Part shown: piece by piece, positions 13,588-64,000 of the stretch
Position numbering within the stretch: the stretch's first letter is position 1
Layout of the letters: each line of letters opens with the position of its first letter
Assembly: GCF_003334765.1 (NCBI RefSeq)
Contig: NZ_QOWT01000008.1
Length of the DNA stretch: 64,000 bases
DNA from: Escherichia coli
Lineage (GTDB): Bacteria; Pseudomonadota; Gammaproteobacteria; Enterobacterales; Enterobacteriaceae
Direction: 5' to 3' (one strand)
Made by a program: the position numbers and the translations under genes
Notes under the pieces: generated by a model
The model's database searches: none
What the model was told of the DNA's origin: nothing
The model's input: only the letters and a program-made list of their open reading frames with translations

Positions 13588-15867
13588 ATGGATGACCAGT
13601 TAAAACAAAGTGCACTTGATTTCCATGAATTTCCAGTTCCAGGGAAAATCCAGGTTTCTCCAACCAAGCCTCTGGCAACACAGCGCGATCTGGCGCTGGC
13701 CTACTCACCAGGCGTTGCCGCACCTTGTCTTGAAATCGAAAAAGACCCGTTAAAAGCCTACAAATATACCGCCCGCGGTAACCTGGTGGCGGTGATCTCT
13801 AACGGTACGGCGGTGCTGGGGTTAGGCAACATTGGCGCGCTGGCAGGCAAACCGGTGATGGAAGGCAAGGGCGTTCTGTTTAAGAAATTCGCCGGGATTG
13901 ATGTATTTGACATTGAAGTTGACGAACTCGACCCGGACAAATTTATTGAAGTTGTCGCCGCGCTCGAACCAACCTTCGGCGGCATCAACCTCGAAGACAT
14001 TAAAGCGCCAGAATGTTTCTATATTGAACAGAAACTGCGCGAGCGGATGAATATTCCGGTATTCCACGACGATCAGCACGGCACGGCAATTATCAGCACT
14101 GCCGCCATCCTCAACGGCTTGCGCGTGGTGGAGAAAAACATCTCCGACGTGCGGATGGTGGTTTCCGGCGCGGGTGCCGCAGCAATCGCCTGTATGAACC
14201 TGCTGGTAGCGCTGGGTCTGCAAAAACATAACATCGTGGTTTGCGATTCAAAAGGCGTTATCTATCAGGGCCGTGAGCCAAACATGGCGGAAACCAAAGC
14301 CGCATATGCGGTGGTGGATGACGGCAAACGTACCCTCGATGATGTGATTGAAGGCGCGGATATTTTCCTGGGCTGTTCCGGCCCGAAAGTGCTGACCCAG
14401 GAAATGGTGAAGAAAATGGCTCGTGCGCCAATGATCCTGGCGCTGGCGAACCCGGAACCGGAAATTCTGCCGCCGCTGGCGAAAGAAGTGCGTCCGGATG
14501 CCATCATTTGCACCGGTCGTTCTGACTATCCGAACCAGGTGAACAACGTCCTGTGCTTCCCGTTCATCTTCCGTGGCGCGCTGGACGTTGGCGCAACCGC
14601 CATCAACGAAGAGATGAAACTGGCGGCGGTACGTGCGATTGCAGAACTCGCCCATGCGGAACAGAGCGAAGTGGTGGCTTCAGCGTATGGCGATCAGGAT
14701 CTGAGCTTTGGTCCGGAATACATCATTCCAAAACCGTTTGATCCGCGCTTGATCGTTAAGATCGCTCCTGCGGTCGCTAAAGCCGCGATGGAGTCGGGCG
14801 TGGCGACTCGTCCGATTGCTGATTTCGACGTCTACATCGACAAGCTGACTGAGTTCGTTTACAAAACCAACCTGTTTATGAAGCCGATTTTCTCCCAGGC
14901 TCGCAAAGCGCCGAAGCGCGTTGTTCTGCCGGAAGGGGAAGAGGCGCGCGTTCTGCATGCCACTCAGGAACTGGTAACGCTGGGACTGGCGAAACCGATC
15001 CTTATCGGTCGTCCGAACGTGATCGAAATGCGCATTCAGAAACTGGGCTTGCAGATCAAAGCGGGCGTTGATTTTGAGATCGTCAATAACGAATCCGATC
15101 CGCGCTTTAAAGAGTACTGGACCGAATACTTCCAGATCATGAAGCGTCGCGGCGTCACTCAGGAACAGGCGCAGCGGGCGCTGATCAGTAACCCGACAGT
15201 GATCGGCGCGATCATGGTTCAGCGTGGGGAAGCCGATGCAATGATTTGCGGTACGGTGGGTGATTATCATGAACATTTTAGCGTGGTGAAAAATGTCTTT
15301 GGTTATCGCGATGGCGTTCACACCGCAGGTGCCATGAACGCGCTGCTGCTGCCGAGTGGTAACACCTTTATTGCCGATACATATGTTAATGATGAACCGG
15401 ATGCAGAAGAGCTGGCGGAGATCACCTTGATGGCGGCAGAAACTGTCCGTCGTTTTGGTATTGAGCCGCGCGTTGCTTTGTTGTCGCACTCCAACTTTGG
15501 TTCTTCTGACTGCCCGTCGTCGAGCAAAATGCGTCAGGCGCTGGAACTGGTCAGGGAACGTGCACCAGAACTGATGATTGATGGTGAAATGCACGGCGAT
15601 GCAGCGCTGGTGGAAGCGATTCGCAACGACCGTATGCCGGACAGCTCTTTGAAAGGTTCCGCCAATATTCTGGTGATGCCGAACATGGAAGCTGCCCGCA
15701 TTAGTTACAACTTACTGCGTGTTTCCAGCTCGGAAGGTGTGACTGTCGGCCCGGTGCTGATGGGTGTGGCGAAACCGGTTCACGTGTTAACGCCGATCGC
15801 ATCGGTGCGTCGTATCGTCAACATGGTGGCGCTGGCCGTGGTAGAAGCGCAAACCCAACCGCTGTAA
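13588..15867 (+). CDS. maeB: NADP-dependent malic enzyme (malic enzyme domain plus C-terminal PTA-like domain)
   Basis: 759 aa recognised as MaeB. Confidence 0.96.
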
Positions 15868-15883
15868 TTTTTTTAACTCTCAC

Positions 15884-15909
15884 GCTTACCCTGAATATTC
15901 AGGGTAAGC
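15884..15909. terminator. perfect 26-bp palindrome GCTTACCCTGAATATTCAGGGTAAGC; possible maeB terminator or protein-binding site
   Basis: Read directly 17 nt after the maeB stop; downstream U-tract is weak, so function is uncertain. Confidence 0.35.
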
Positions 15910-16158
15910 AGTTTAGCTGCAATATATTAGTAAAGCTTATTACTGAGTTTGCGAATAATAAAAAAAAGCAGTCTATATAATATCTCGATATTATTTTATT
16001 TATATTCATGCGTTGCATATGAAAGTTTATGCACCACAGCGAATATCTCTCCATTCTTAGTGATCTACCTCACCTTTTAAACGCGCTTGCCGAATTTTGT
16101 TATTTACTCTGACGAAAAATTGTCACGATACACGAAAGTTTTTCACAGGCGGCGACTC
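15910..16158 (+). promoter_or_regulatory. eut operon upstream control region (main promoter, EutR-responsive)
   Basis: AT-rich 250-bp region directly upstream of eutS; region-level call only, sites not mapped. Confidence 0.4.
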
Positions 16159-16494
16159 ATGGATAAAGAACGCATCATTCAGGAATTTGTGCCCGGCAAA
16201 CAGGTCACACTGGCGCATCTCATCGCGCATCCCGGTGAGGAACTGGCGAAGAAAATCGGCGTTCCGGATGCGGGCGCAATTGGCATTATGACGCTAACTC
16301 CCGGCGAAACGGCGATGATCGCCGGTGATTTAGCGCTGAAAGCCGCTGATGTGCATATCGGTTTTCTCGACCGATTCAGCGGTGCATTGGTGATTTATGG
16401 CTCGGTGGGCGCAGTAGAAGAAGCGTTATCACAAACCGTCAGCGGTTTAGGTCGCTTATTAAATTATACGCTTTGTGAAATGACCAAAAGTTAA
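16159..16494 (+). CDS. eutS: microcompartment shell protein EutS
   Basis: Internal ATG 16159 gives 111 aa starting [10 protein letters not shown]; ORF-track start is an extension. Confidence 0.93.
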
Positions 16495-16506
16495 TACGAG
16501 GCATTC

Positions 16507-16986
16507 ATGAAACGAATTGCGTTTGTGGGTAGCGTCGGGGCAGGAAAAACAACGTTATTTAATGCGTTGCAGGGGAATTATACCCTCGCCAGAAAAACAC
16601 AGGCCGTGGAATTTAATGATAAGGGCGATATTGATACGCCGGGTGAATATTTTAACCATCCCCGCTGGTATCACGCCTTAATTACCACGCTACAGGATGT
16701 AGACATGCTGATCTATGTCCATGGCGCAAATGACCCGGAAAGTCGGTTGCCTGCCGGGTTGCTGGATATTGGCGTCAGCAAACGGCAAATCGCCGTCATC
16801 AGTAAAACGGACATGCCAGATGCTGACGTCGCCGCAACGCGAAAGTTATTGCTTGAGACGGGCTTCGAAGAGCCGATTTTCGAGCTAAACAGCCACGACC
16901 CGCAAAGCGTGCAGCAACTGGTGGATTATCTGGCATCTCTCACCAAACAGGAGGAAGCAGGTGAAAAAACTCATCACAGCGAATGA
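16507..16986 (+). CDS. eutP: EutP, P-loop GTPase/ATPase-like protein
   Basis: 159 aa; Walker A GSVGAGKTTL. Confidence 0.93.
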   Translation: MKRIAFVGSVGAGKTTLFNALQGNYTLARKTQAVEFNDKGDIDTPGEYFNHPRWYHALITTLQDVDMLIYVHGANDPESRLPAGLLDIGVSKRQIAVISKTDMPDADVAATRKLLLETGFEEPIFELNSHDPQSVQQLVDYLASLTKQEEAGEKTHHSE

Positions 16987-17662
16987 TATTCGTGAAGCAC
17001 ACGCGCGCGGCGAACAGGCAATGTCCGTGGTTCTGCGCGCCAGCATTATTACCCCGGAAGCCCGTGAAGTGGCGGATCTACTGGGTTTTACCATCACCGA
17101 ATGTGATGAATCGATCCCGGTAACGGCGTCCGTGCCCGCCAGCGTGCCAGCCGACAAAACCGAAAGCCAGCGCATCCGCGAAACCATCATTGCCCAGCTG
17201 CCGGAAGGCCAGTTTACCGAAAGCCTGGTCGCACAGCTGATGGAAAAAGTGATGAAGGAAAAACAGTCGCTGGAGCAGGGCGCAATGCAGCCGAGCTTCA
17301 AATCGGTGACCGGCAAAGGCGGCATCAAAGTGATTGATGGCAGTAGCGTCAAGTTTGGTCGTTTCGACGGCGCAGAGCCGCATTGCGTGGGCTTGACTGA
17401 TCTTGTGACCGGAGACGACGGCAGCAGCATGGCCGCCGGTTTTATGCAGTGGGAGAACGCATTCTTCCCGTGGACCCTGAACTACGACGAAATCGACATG
17501 GTGCTGGAAGGGGAGCTGCATGTTCGCCACGAAGGCCAAACCATGATCGCCAAAGCAGGCGACGTGATGTTTATCCCGAAAGGCTCCAGCATCGAATTTG
17601 GTACGACATCCAGCGTGAAATTCCTGTATGTCGCCTGGCCGGCTAACTGGCAATCCCTATGA
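16961..17662 (+). CDS. eutQ: EutQ, cupin-fold protein
   Basis: 233 aa; overlaps eutP by 26 nt. Confidence 0.92.
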   Translation: MKKLITANDIREAHARGEQAMSVVLRASIITPEAREVADLLGFTITECDESIPVTASVPASVPADKTESQRIRETIIAQLPEGQFTESLVAQLMEKVMKEKQSLEQGAMQPSFKSVTGKGGIKVIDGSSVKFGRFDGAEPHCVGLTDLVTGDDGSSMAAGFMQWENAFFPWTLNYDEIDMVLEGELHVRHEGQTMIAKAGDVMFIPKGSSIEFGTTSSVKFLYVAWPANWQSL

Positions 17663-29946: not shown

Positions 29947-29991
29947 CCTGTCGGAGGTGCCGGGTGTCCTACAACACCCGGCATTAACATC

Positions 29992-31044
29992 ATGAAAAAG
30001 ACCCGTACAGCCAATTTGCACCATCTTTATCATGAACCCTTACCCGAAAACCTGAAGCTCACGCCGAAGGTCGAAGTGGATAATGTTCATCAACGACAGA
30101 CAACGGATGTCTATGAACATGCTTTAACGATTACCGCCTGGCAGCAGATTTACGATCAGCTGCATCCGGGCAAGTTTCATGGTGAATTTACGGAAATTCT
30201 ACTCGATGATATTCAGGTTTTTCGTGAATACACCGGTCTGGCGCTGCGTCAGTCGTGCCTGGTCTGGCCGAACTCGTTCTGGTTTGGCATTCCGGCGACG
30301 CGCGGTGAGCAGGGATTTATCGGTTCGCAATGTCTGGGAAGCGCGGAAATCGCCACCCGCCCTGGTGGCACTGAATTTGAACTGAGCACGCCGGATGATT
30401 ACACGATCCTGGGCGTGGTGCTTTCTGAAGATGTCATCACCCGGCAGGCTAACTTTTTGCATAACCCGGATCGGGTATTACATATGTTGCGTAACCAGTC
30501 GGCGCTGGAAGTGAAAGAGCAGCATAAAGCCGCGCTGTGGGGCTTTGTCCAACAGGCGCTGGCGACGTTTTGCGAGAATCCGGAAAATCTCCATCAGCCT
30601 GCAGTGCGAAAAGTGCTGGGGGATAATTTGCTAATGGCGATGGGGGCCATGCTGGAAGAAGCGCAACCAATGGTGACGGCGGAAAGCATCAGTCATCAGA
30701 GTTACCGTCGATTGCTTTCCCGCGCCCGTGAATATGTGCTGGAAAACATGTCCGAACCGGTGACGGTGCTGGATTTGTGTAATCAACTGCATGTCAGCCG
30801 CCGCACGCTACAAAACGCGTTTCACGCTATTTTAGGCATTGGCCCGAACGCGTGGCTGAAACGCATTCGCCTGAACGCCGTACGCCGCGAACTGATAAGT
30901 CCGTGGTCGCAAAGTATGACGGTAAAAGACGCCGCCATGCAGTGGGGATTCTGGCATCTGGGGCAATTTGCCACGGATTACCAGCAGCTGTTTTCCGAGA
31001 AGCCGTCACTGACGCTGCATCAGCGGATGCGGGAGTGGGGGTGA
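29992..31044 (+). CDS. eutR: EutR, AraC-family activator of the eut operon
   Basis: 350 aa; C-terminal AraC-type HTH. Confidence 0.93.
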
Positions 31045-63646: not shown

Positions 63647-63707
63647 ATCGCAGATAGCAAAAAAGCGCCTTTAGGGCGCTTTTTTACATTGGTGGGTCGT
63701 GCAGGAT
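63647..63707. repeat. 61-bp direct repeat, copy 1: terminator hairpin plus 3'-terminal 18 nt of tRNA-Lys (copy 2 at 63803-63863 runs into intact lysV)
   Basis: ATCGCAGATAG(C/T)AAAAAAGCGCCTTTAGGGCGCTTTTTTACATTGGTGGGTCGTGCAGGAT occurs twice, 156-bp period, one mismatch. Confidence 0.8.
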
Positions 63708-63845
63708 GACTCGCTTCGCTCGCCCTTCGGGCCGTCGCCGCGAGCGGCTCCGTTGTTTCGCTGCGCTCAACTCAAACCTGCTGCAGGTTCGAATCTTTGA
63801 GTATCGCAGATAGTAAAAAAGCGCCTTTAGGGCGCTTTTTTACAT

Positions 63846-63921
63846 TGGTGGGTCGTGCAGGATTCGAACCTGCGACCAATTGATTAAAAGTCAACTGCTC
63901 TACCAACTGAGCTAACGACCC
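63846..63921 (-). tRNA. lysV: tRNA-Lys (anticodon UUU)
   Basis: Reverse complement gives a 76-nt tRNA with anticodon loop CTTTTAA and CCA end. Confidence 0.95.
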
Positions 63922-63925
63922 GAAG

Positions 63926-64000
63926 TGGTGGGTGATGACGGGATCGAACCGCCGACCCCCTCCTTGTAAGGGAGGTGCTCTCCCAGCTGAGCTAATCACC
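63926..64000 (-). tRNA. valY: tRNA-Val (anticodon UAC), lacking only its 5'-terminal nucleotide at the window edge
   Basis: Reverse complement gives GGTGATTAGCTCAGCTGGGAGAGCACCTCCCTTACAAGGAGG...CACCCACCA; which val gene of the cluster is assigned by position. Confidence 0.9.

Follow-up and report, generated by a model that had tools for sequence, protein, structure and literature searches.

The window, the whole 64-kb stretch of E. coli DNA that was analysed, contains maeB and eut genes. The gene order in RefSeq, at the same locus in E. coli 504239 and K-12, is maeB, an intergenic region and eutS-eutP-eutQ-eutT, with talA divergent. maeB (13588–15867, + strand) encodes an NADP-dependent malic enzyme of 759 aa, as assigned from the ORF list, an NCBIfam match (NF009501, E = 0) and RefSeq. 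Its stop codon, TAA, lies at 15865–15867 and is followed by a U-rich spacer of 16 nt (TTTTTTTAACTCTCAC, 15868–15883, + strand), which was delimited by sequence and alignment. A palindrome of 26 nt occupies 15884–15909. It is followed on the + strand by a short tail, AGUUUA (15910–15915), an AT-rich spacer (15916–16053) and a block kept across genera (16054–16158). eutS, gene 1 of the eut operon, lies at 16159–16494 on the + strand (NCBIfam NF012012, E = 1.6e-74; RefSeq), with its start codon 250 nt from the palindrome.

The palindrome reads GCTTACCCTGAATATTCAGGGTAAGC. An earlier description made from the letters alone (the sequence-only reading) had reported a perfect 26-bp palindrome with 13-bp arms, 17 nt after the maeB stop. 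Both statements were confirmed: the two 13-nt arms show 100% complementarity with a 0-nt spacer, and the palindrome begins at the 17th nucleotide past the stop codon. It is the longest zero-spacer perfect palindrome of the window, the runner-up having 8-nt arms. In the palindrome control, arms of 13 nt were reached in 0 of 200 shuffles, and by our own arithmetic the chance expectation is about 0.001 per window (64000 × 4^-13). The K-12 annotation carries no feature on the palindrome and no repeat feature. An Rfam scan of 15000–17000 gave two chance-level matches, neither on the palindrome, and nothing near the gathering score. A literature search for the palindrome sequence found no paper.

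Folded as + strand RNA, the palindrome formed an 11-bp stem (15884–15894 with 15899–15909) and an AUAU loop (15895–15898). The ΔG was −18 kcal/mol and the z score against shuffles was −6.7, so the earlier claim of a very stable RNA hairpin was borne out. Six of the 11 pairs are G-C. In the 28-bp form with G at 15910, a C15883–G15910 pair extends the stem to 12 bp and the ΔG is −20.4. The maeB-sense tail after the stem (AGTTTAGCTG / AGUUUAGCUG) contains only a short U run (UUU). A U-tract of about five or more U in the 8 nt directly after the stem was not present in the tail AGUUUAGC, and the sequence has no upstream A-tract. A consensus promoter/terminator scan of 15500–16500 called neither a terminator nor a promoter in E. 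coli. This silence is compatible with a weak U-tract; the scan does not distinguish the mechanism. The tail score was 2.8 (E. coli range 2.0–3.2) versus 5.3–5.6 for canonical orthologous terminators. The sequence-only reading was therefore right that a clear U-tract is missing. Its further judgement, that this is not a textbook terminator, holds for E. coli but not for E. whittamii, in which the same hairpin carries a proper U-tract. A terminator on the minus strand, or a bidirectional one, was considered and rejected: a U-tract is missing from the minus-strand tail (GUGAGAGUUAAAAAAA), and folding of the variants is poorer there.

Full-length primary transcripts of E. coli K-12 have been sequenced by SMRT-Cappable-seq (Yan et al. 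2018, PMC6131387), and maeB (b2463, reverse strand) is among them. In M9 medium, Supplementary Data 1 lists its TTS at 2576050 and its TSS at 2578498, with 52 reads at the TSS, 11 at the TTS, 0 passing and 12 ending ≤50 bp downstream. In rich medium, the TTS is at 2576049 for two TSSs. The transcript from 2578443 has 62 reads at the TSS, 37 at the TTS, 3 passing and 2 ending ≤50 bp downstream, with a median read-through of 135 nt. The transcript from 2578531 has 62, 21, 4 and 7 reads, respectively, with a median read-through of 86 nt. All maeB ends were typed 'novelTTS', meaning that they did not coincide with a previously known terminator. In Supplementary Data 3 of the same study, the RegulonDB operon b2463 was extended to b2463, b2462 and b2461, which is a maeB-eutS-eutP read-through.

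We mapped the hairpin to K-12 positions 2576080–2576055 and the tail A-G-U-U-U-A to 2576054–2576049. K-12 position 2576050 corresponds to 15914 of the window and 2576049 to 15915. These coordinates place the maeB ends 5–6 nt past the stem, at the close of the sole U run and within the tail. The one-base difference between M9 and rich medium is an A and may be unresolvable, as the method adds a poly(A) tail. The reads reaching the site stopped exactly there in 48%, 88% and 66% of cases, respectively (own arithmetic on small numbers, with the three read classes treated as exclusive). The read counts are small and come from a single data set, and a 3'-end method cannot separate termination from processing. 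This was the only 3'-end data set found that lists the maeB site. The Term-seq supplements searched had no maeB entry; they are possibly incomplete, so this is not evidence of absence.

The sequence-only reading had proposed 3'-end mapping of maeB transcripts as a check, and ends precisely after the hairpin, with no effect on eut expression, would have made it a plain terminator. The published ends agree with the first of these two points and so point to a plain terminator. Its view of the element as an RNA hairpin and an insulator between maeB and eut is supported, with a minority of reads on record as running on into eutS-eutP. The maeB 3' end was thus already in a public K-12 catalogue, and it appears never to have been discussed individually.

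The palindrome was then followed through complete E. coli genomes. Of 5426 genomes, 5410 have it at one locus according to searches with 38-nt and 31-nt queries; each genome gave two matches because the palindrome matches on both strands. With one locus per genome, it is not a dispersed repeat. The 38-nt query matched 1198 records fully and 4197 with one mismatch. In the sequences read, that mismatch was A15910 to G, and G is present in about three quarters of E. coli genomes, the window and K-12 carrying the minority A allele. G15910 pairs with C15883, which makes the palindrome a perfect one of 28 bp. About 97% of E. coli records have an unchanged 26-nt core, and one-mismatch versions of the core occur in 159 records. 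The tail is polymorphic within E. coli: GTTTAG, GTTTGG, GTTTTC and GTCCAG were seen, the last in locus L088. In E. coli B (strain C3029, L098 61–89), the 5' arm is GCTTATCCTG, with a C to T change by which a C-G pair becomes U·G on the maeB-sense strand. As a separate observation, E. coli LCP30S3_I3 carries an IS4-like ISVsa5 (IS10-type) at the maeB-side edge of the hairpin (L103 2528–3880). This insertion parts maeB from its hairpin, which remains on the eut side.

A search with the MaeB C-terminus allowed the equivalent position to be compared in 80 Enterobacteriaceae species. Among them, a hairpin of the E. coli type was found in Escherichia lineages only. The hairpin is CGCTTACTCTGGATTATTCGGGGTAAGCG in Escherichia sp. 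MOD1, CGCTTACCCTGAGTAATTCGGGGTAAGCG in E. whittamii and CGCTTACCCTGTTTATTCGGGGTAAGCG in E. coli MSB1_4I; 'E. coli' SCPM-O-B-8794 has the majority E. coli form. In the alignment, the arms are conserved across the lineages while the flanks diverge, and the loop varies from 3 to 6 nt. The centre is longer by 1 nt in Escherichia sp. MOD1 and E. whittamii and is rewritten in MSB1_4I. With this extra nucleotide, the distance between the half-sites differs among lineages.

On the + strand, five substitutions in the stem produce G·U pairs; on the − strand, the same changes would produce A·C. The outermost pair alone, with the A15910 allele of K-12 and the window, favours the − strand, so that the strand asymmetry is only 5 to 1. 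In three variant lineages, the + strand fold is 4–9 kcal/mol more stable than the − strand fold, and 96.7% of the cells to be paired are paired on the + strand versus 91.2% on the − strand. No compensatory change on both sides of one pair was found among the seven distinct sequences, and shuffle controls are uninformative with seven sequences. Covariation by itself is therefore weak evidence. The variable centre and loop, the sense-strand G·U pattern and the more stable + strand fold nevertheless fit an RNA hairpin and not a dimer site of fixed spacing.

In E. whittamii, ATTTTTATAT comes after the hairpin, and the scan that was silent in E. coli called a + strand terminator there. In MSB1_4I, a glycosyltransferase gene and an IS1 part maeB from eut, and the hairpin still adjoins maeB. 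At this locus (L096 6036–9150), a glycosyltransferase family 4 gene lies on the opposite strand between the maeB hairpin and eutS, and the IS1 lies between eutS and eutP. A metagenome scan yielded three contigs (L100–L102), all with the MSB1_4I hairpin variant and the same downstream flank and arrangement; no hairpin variants beyond the MSB1_4I type were found in it.

Almost all of the 80 species have a stable stem-loop after the maeB stop. In relatives whose next gene is eutS, about 160 nt away, a canonical terminator is present 18–21 nt past the maeB stop. This form, a GC stem with a U-tract, was found in Citrobacter, the Klebsiella oxytoca group, Pseudocitrobacter and Yokenella; its common version is GGCGCGGG-loop-CCCGCGCC followed by TTTTTATTT. 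Its U-tract abuts the block equivalent to 16054–16158 of the window. Salmonella arizonae and diarizonae have an analogous GC-stem/U-tract terminator at the same offset after maeB. In place of the canonical terminator, Escherichia has the palindrome and about 135 nt of 27%-GC sequence.

Enterobacter, Leclercia and Raoultella carry REP/BIME-type repeats after maeB, and the 9-mer CGCTTACCC is common to these repeats and the E. coli hairpin arm. In the first ~70 nt past the stop, the repeats (L036, L039, L046, L058, L076 and L081) contain CGCTTACCCGAC. A hairpin that looks similar, GGCCCTTATCCC-GGCA-GGGGTAAGGGCC, is present in Intestinirhabdus alba (L006). Judged by their sequences, a common origin of the E. 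coli arm, the REP repeats and the I. alba hairpin is possible.

The AT-rich spacer (15916–16053, about 27% GC) is found in Escherichia only and is absent from Citrobacter, Klebsiella and Yokenella. It was characterised by alignment, composition, folding and published read-through sizes. Its fold was no better than shuffles, and no secondary terminator was found in it. The published read-through transcripts mostly end within it (median extension 86–135 nt). Fifty-six nt of this spacer are missing in SCPM-O-B-8794 (L005). In the cross-genus alignment, Escherichia shares the block at 16054–16158 (TTCTTAGTGATCTACCTCACCTTTTAAAC...TTGCCGAATTTTGTTATTTACTC...AAAAATTGTCACGAT) with Citrobacter, Klebsiella and Yokenella; this conserved block is presumably the eut promoter and leader. 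Within it, AGTGA-N6-TCACC at 16059–16074 looks like a CRP site when compared with the consensus TGTGA-N6-TCACA. A transcription start site of eutS in Salmonella was not found in the paper checked.

Other hairpins were observed elsewhere in the window. A perfect 10-bp-stem hairpin without a U-tract (TGCCGGGTGTCCTACAACACCCGGCA, 29958–29983) lies in a 45-nt gap between a 168-aa ORF, probably eutK, and a 350-aa ORF starting at 29992, probably eutR. A role as an attenuator or stabiliser within the operon is possible. Another U-less 3' hairpin with a 10-bp stem (TACTGCCGGGAGCCCCGGCAGTA, 59255–59277), without U or A tracts, lies between the convergent ORFs 58318–59244 (+) and 59283–60047 (−). Two copies of a terminator-like hairpin, AAAAAAGCGCCTTTAGGGCGCTTTTTT, are at 63659–63685 and 63813–63843, 154 nt apart. 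Next to them, at the edge of the window (63846–64000), lie − strand genes for tRNA-Lys and tRNA-Val.

The palindrome is most probably the terminator or 3'-end RNA hairpin of maeB, with a weak, degraded U-tract, somewhat leaky, and also protecting the mRNA. Sequence, fold, conservation pattern, positional equivalence to the canonical terminators, and mapped ends with read-through all support this assignment. Two features of intrinsic terminators were found, a sense stem-loop near the stop codon and 3' ends in a U run. The counter-evidence includes the poor U-tract and the polymorphism of the UUU run within E. coli. According to this explanation, polymerase would pass the maeB stop codon, and the next 26–28 nt of + strand RNA would fold into a hairpin of 11–12 bp. 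Most maeB transcripts end 5–6 nt later, in AGUUU/A. The element would act as an intrinsic terminator with a weak U-tract, and the hairpin would also shield the finished mRNA from 3' exonucleases. It is leaky, with some transcripts extending 90–135 nt into the AT-rich spacer and a few reaching eutS-eutP. By our estimate, a hairpin 16 nt past the stop codon presumably lies just outside the footprint of a terminating ribosome. As an element it is of a textbook kind, an ordinary terminator or 3'-end hairpin.

The release step can also be explained in another way. Transcription could run past the hairpin and stop later, either through Rho or at weak sites in the AT-rich spacer. The RNA could then be trimmed by 3'-5' exonucleases back to the hairpin, which would be only a protective cap. 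Dar and Sorek (2018, PMC6061677) described precise E. coli 3' ends past stable stem-loops that lack a U-rich tail or an upstream A-tract, with rut sites placed immediately downstream. The U-poor tail and the missing A-tract here match the sequence features of that class. The variability of the UUU run within E. coli points the same way, as do the 12 of 23 M9 reads reaching the site that end ≤50 nt downstream and a C/G ratio of 1.8–1.9 from 15996 to 16115. However, the first 80–100 nt past the 3' end are C-poor (C/G 0.8, only 3 YC dimers). The mapped ends also lie exactly at the end of the sole U run, as intrinsic release predicts, and a sister species, E. whittamii, has a true U-tract on the same hairpin. 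A literature search for Rho or bicyclomycin results on the maeB site found nothing specific. We consider trimming from a downstream site rather unlikely and infer that unaided RNA polymerase is released at the hairpin. Trimming competes with intrinsic release on this step alone. That the element is the 3'-end hairpin of maeB is common to both.

The leakiness of the terminator might itself be functional. The decayed U-tract could make it a tuned, condition-dependent partial terminator that lets a set fraction of maeB transcripts into eutS-eutP, possibly modulated by a partner. If so, partial termination would keep the first eut genes expressed at a basal level independently of EutR and would couple malic-enzyme and ethanolamine metabolism. 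The putative partner would be a specific protein or RNA that acts on the palindrome. The maeB promoter is reported to be acetate-induced, and in proteomics the MaeB level was unchanged on ethanolamine induction (PMC11334477), which is consistent with separate regulation of maeB and eut. Such tuning is improbable in our judgement.

The symmetry of the palindrome had also suggested a binding site for a dimeric protein to the sequence-only reading, and this was not borne out. As a DNA operator for a dimeric transcription factor of eut or maeB, possibly also transcribed, it would have two-fold symmetric half-sites, which the perfect 13-nt arms in E. coli do provide. The symmetry includes the centre and extends over 26 bp (28 bp in most strains), and the 26-nt core is nearly invariant in E. 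coli, as described above. The inner CCTGAA/TTCAGG resembles what we take to be half-sites of the NarL/UhpA type, but this is only a lead. Across Escherichia, however, neither spacing nor symmetry is conserved: the half-sites are 1 nt further apart in Escherichia sp. MOD1 and E. whittamii, the MSB1_4I centre is rewritten, and substitutions break the DNA symmetry yet keep pairing in the + strand RNA. A search of the window for the half-site GCTTACCCTGAAT returned the two arms and one match with 2 mismatches, within chance, and the whole element occurs at one locus per genome. The element comes after maeB, and the conserved eut promoter block begins about 145 nt beyond it; relatives that share this block lack the palindrome. 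The palindrome is probably not a docking site for a protein, and an operator function is very unlikely. Two sets of motifs were compared with it and judged not to fit. A UhpA-type site was considered on the pattern CCTGRR, but uhpT itself carries TCCAGG-N5-CCTGGA, which has the opposite arrangement and spacing. For the NarL 7-2-7 heptamers and the RcsB box, the spacing here is 7-6-7 and the GA-N4-TC core alone matches.

A very unlikely explanation is a functionless relic (a REP-like or mobile-element remnant, or a template-switching palindrome) that came to lie after maeB by chance; it would account for the 9-mer shared with the REP-type repeats, the Escherichia-specific surrounding segment and the insertions right beside the hairpin (ISVsa5 in LCP30S3_I3, the glycosyltransferase gene in MSB1_4I), but a single-copy element is no repeat family, maeB transcripts end at it, and its arms are kept across Escherichia while the flanks diverge. 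Moreover, a stable stem-loop of some kind occupies that position in almost all of the Enterobacteriaceae species sampled.

As the 3'-end hairpin of maeB, the palindrome is a mostly negative result: a striking palindrome beside a regulated operon is an ordinary hairpin of the upstream gene. It illustrates, in a natural setting, that a U-poor hairpin can nonetheless set a precise 3' end. Its leakiness yields maeB-eutS-eutP transcripts, which could add to basal eut expression. The comparison across genera shows terminator turnover, in which Escherichia has swapped the canonical maeB terminator of its relatives for an unrelated hairpin, whose U-tract has since decayed in E. coli.

Compared with known systems, the element shares with the operators of LacI/GalR and NarL/UhpA a two-fold DNA symmetry over 26–28 bp in E. 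coli. Unlike dimeric operators, it has no conserved spacing or symmetry and no further copies, and it lies outside a promoter. Like REP/BIME repeats, it is a palindromic RNA hairpin directly past the maeB stop and has the 9-mer in common with them; unlike them, it is a single-copy, perfect palindrome without a REP-like bulge or a GTAG/CTAC tail. It resembles the class of Dar and Sorek in being a stable hairpin without a U-rich tail or A-tract and with a precise steady-state 3' end just downstream. It differs from that class in that the enrichment of C over G starts about 80 nt downstream and that orthologues have real U-tracts. From the Citrobacter-type terminators, the E. coli element differs in its polymorphic U-tract of just UUU with the lower tail score and in its longer, less GC-rich stem of unrelated sequence. 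Like the canonical maeB terminators of Citrobacter and Klebsiella, it is a sense stem-loop 16–21 nt past the stop codon with a stability of −16 to −20 kcal/mol, and it shares with intrinsic terminators RNA 3' ends that lie a few nt past the stem, in a U run.
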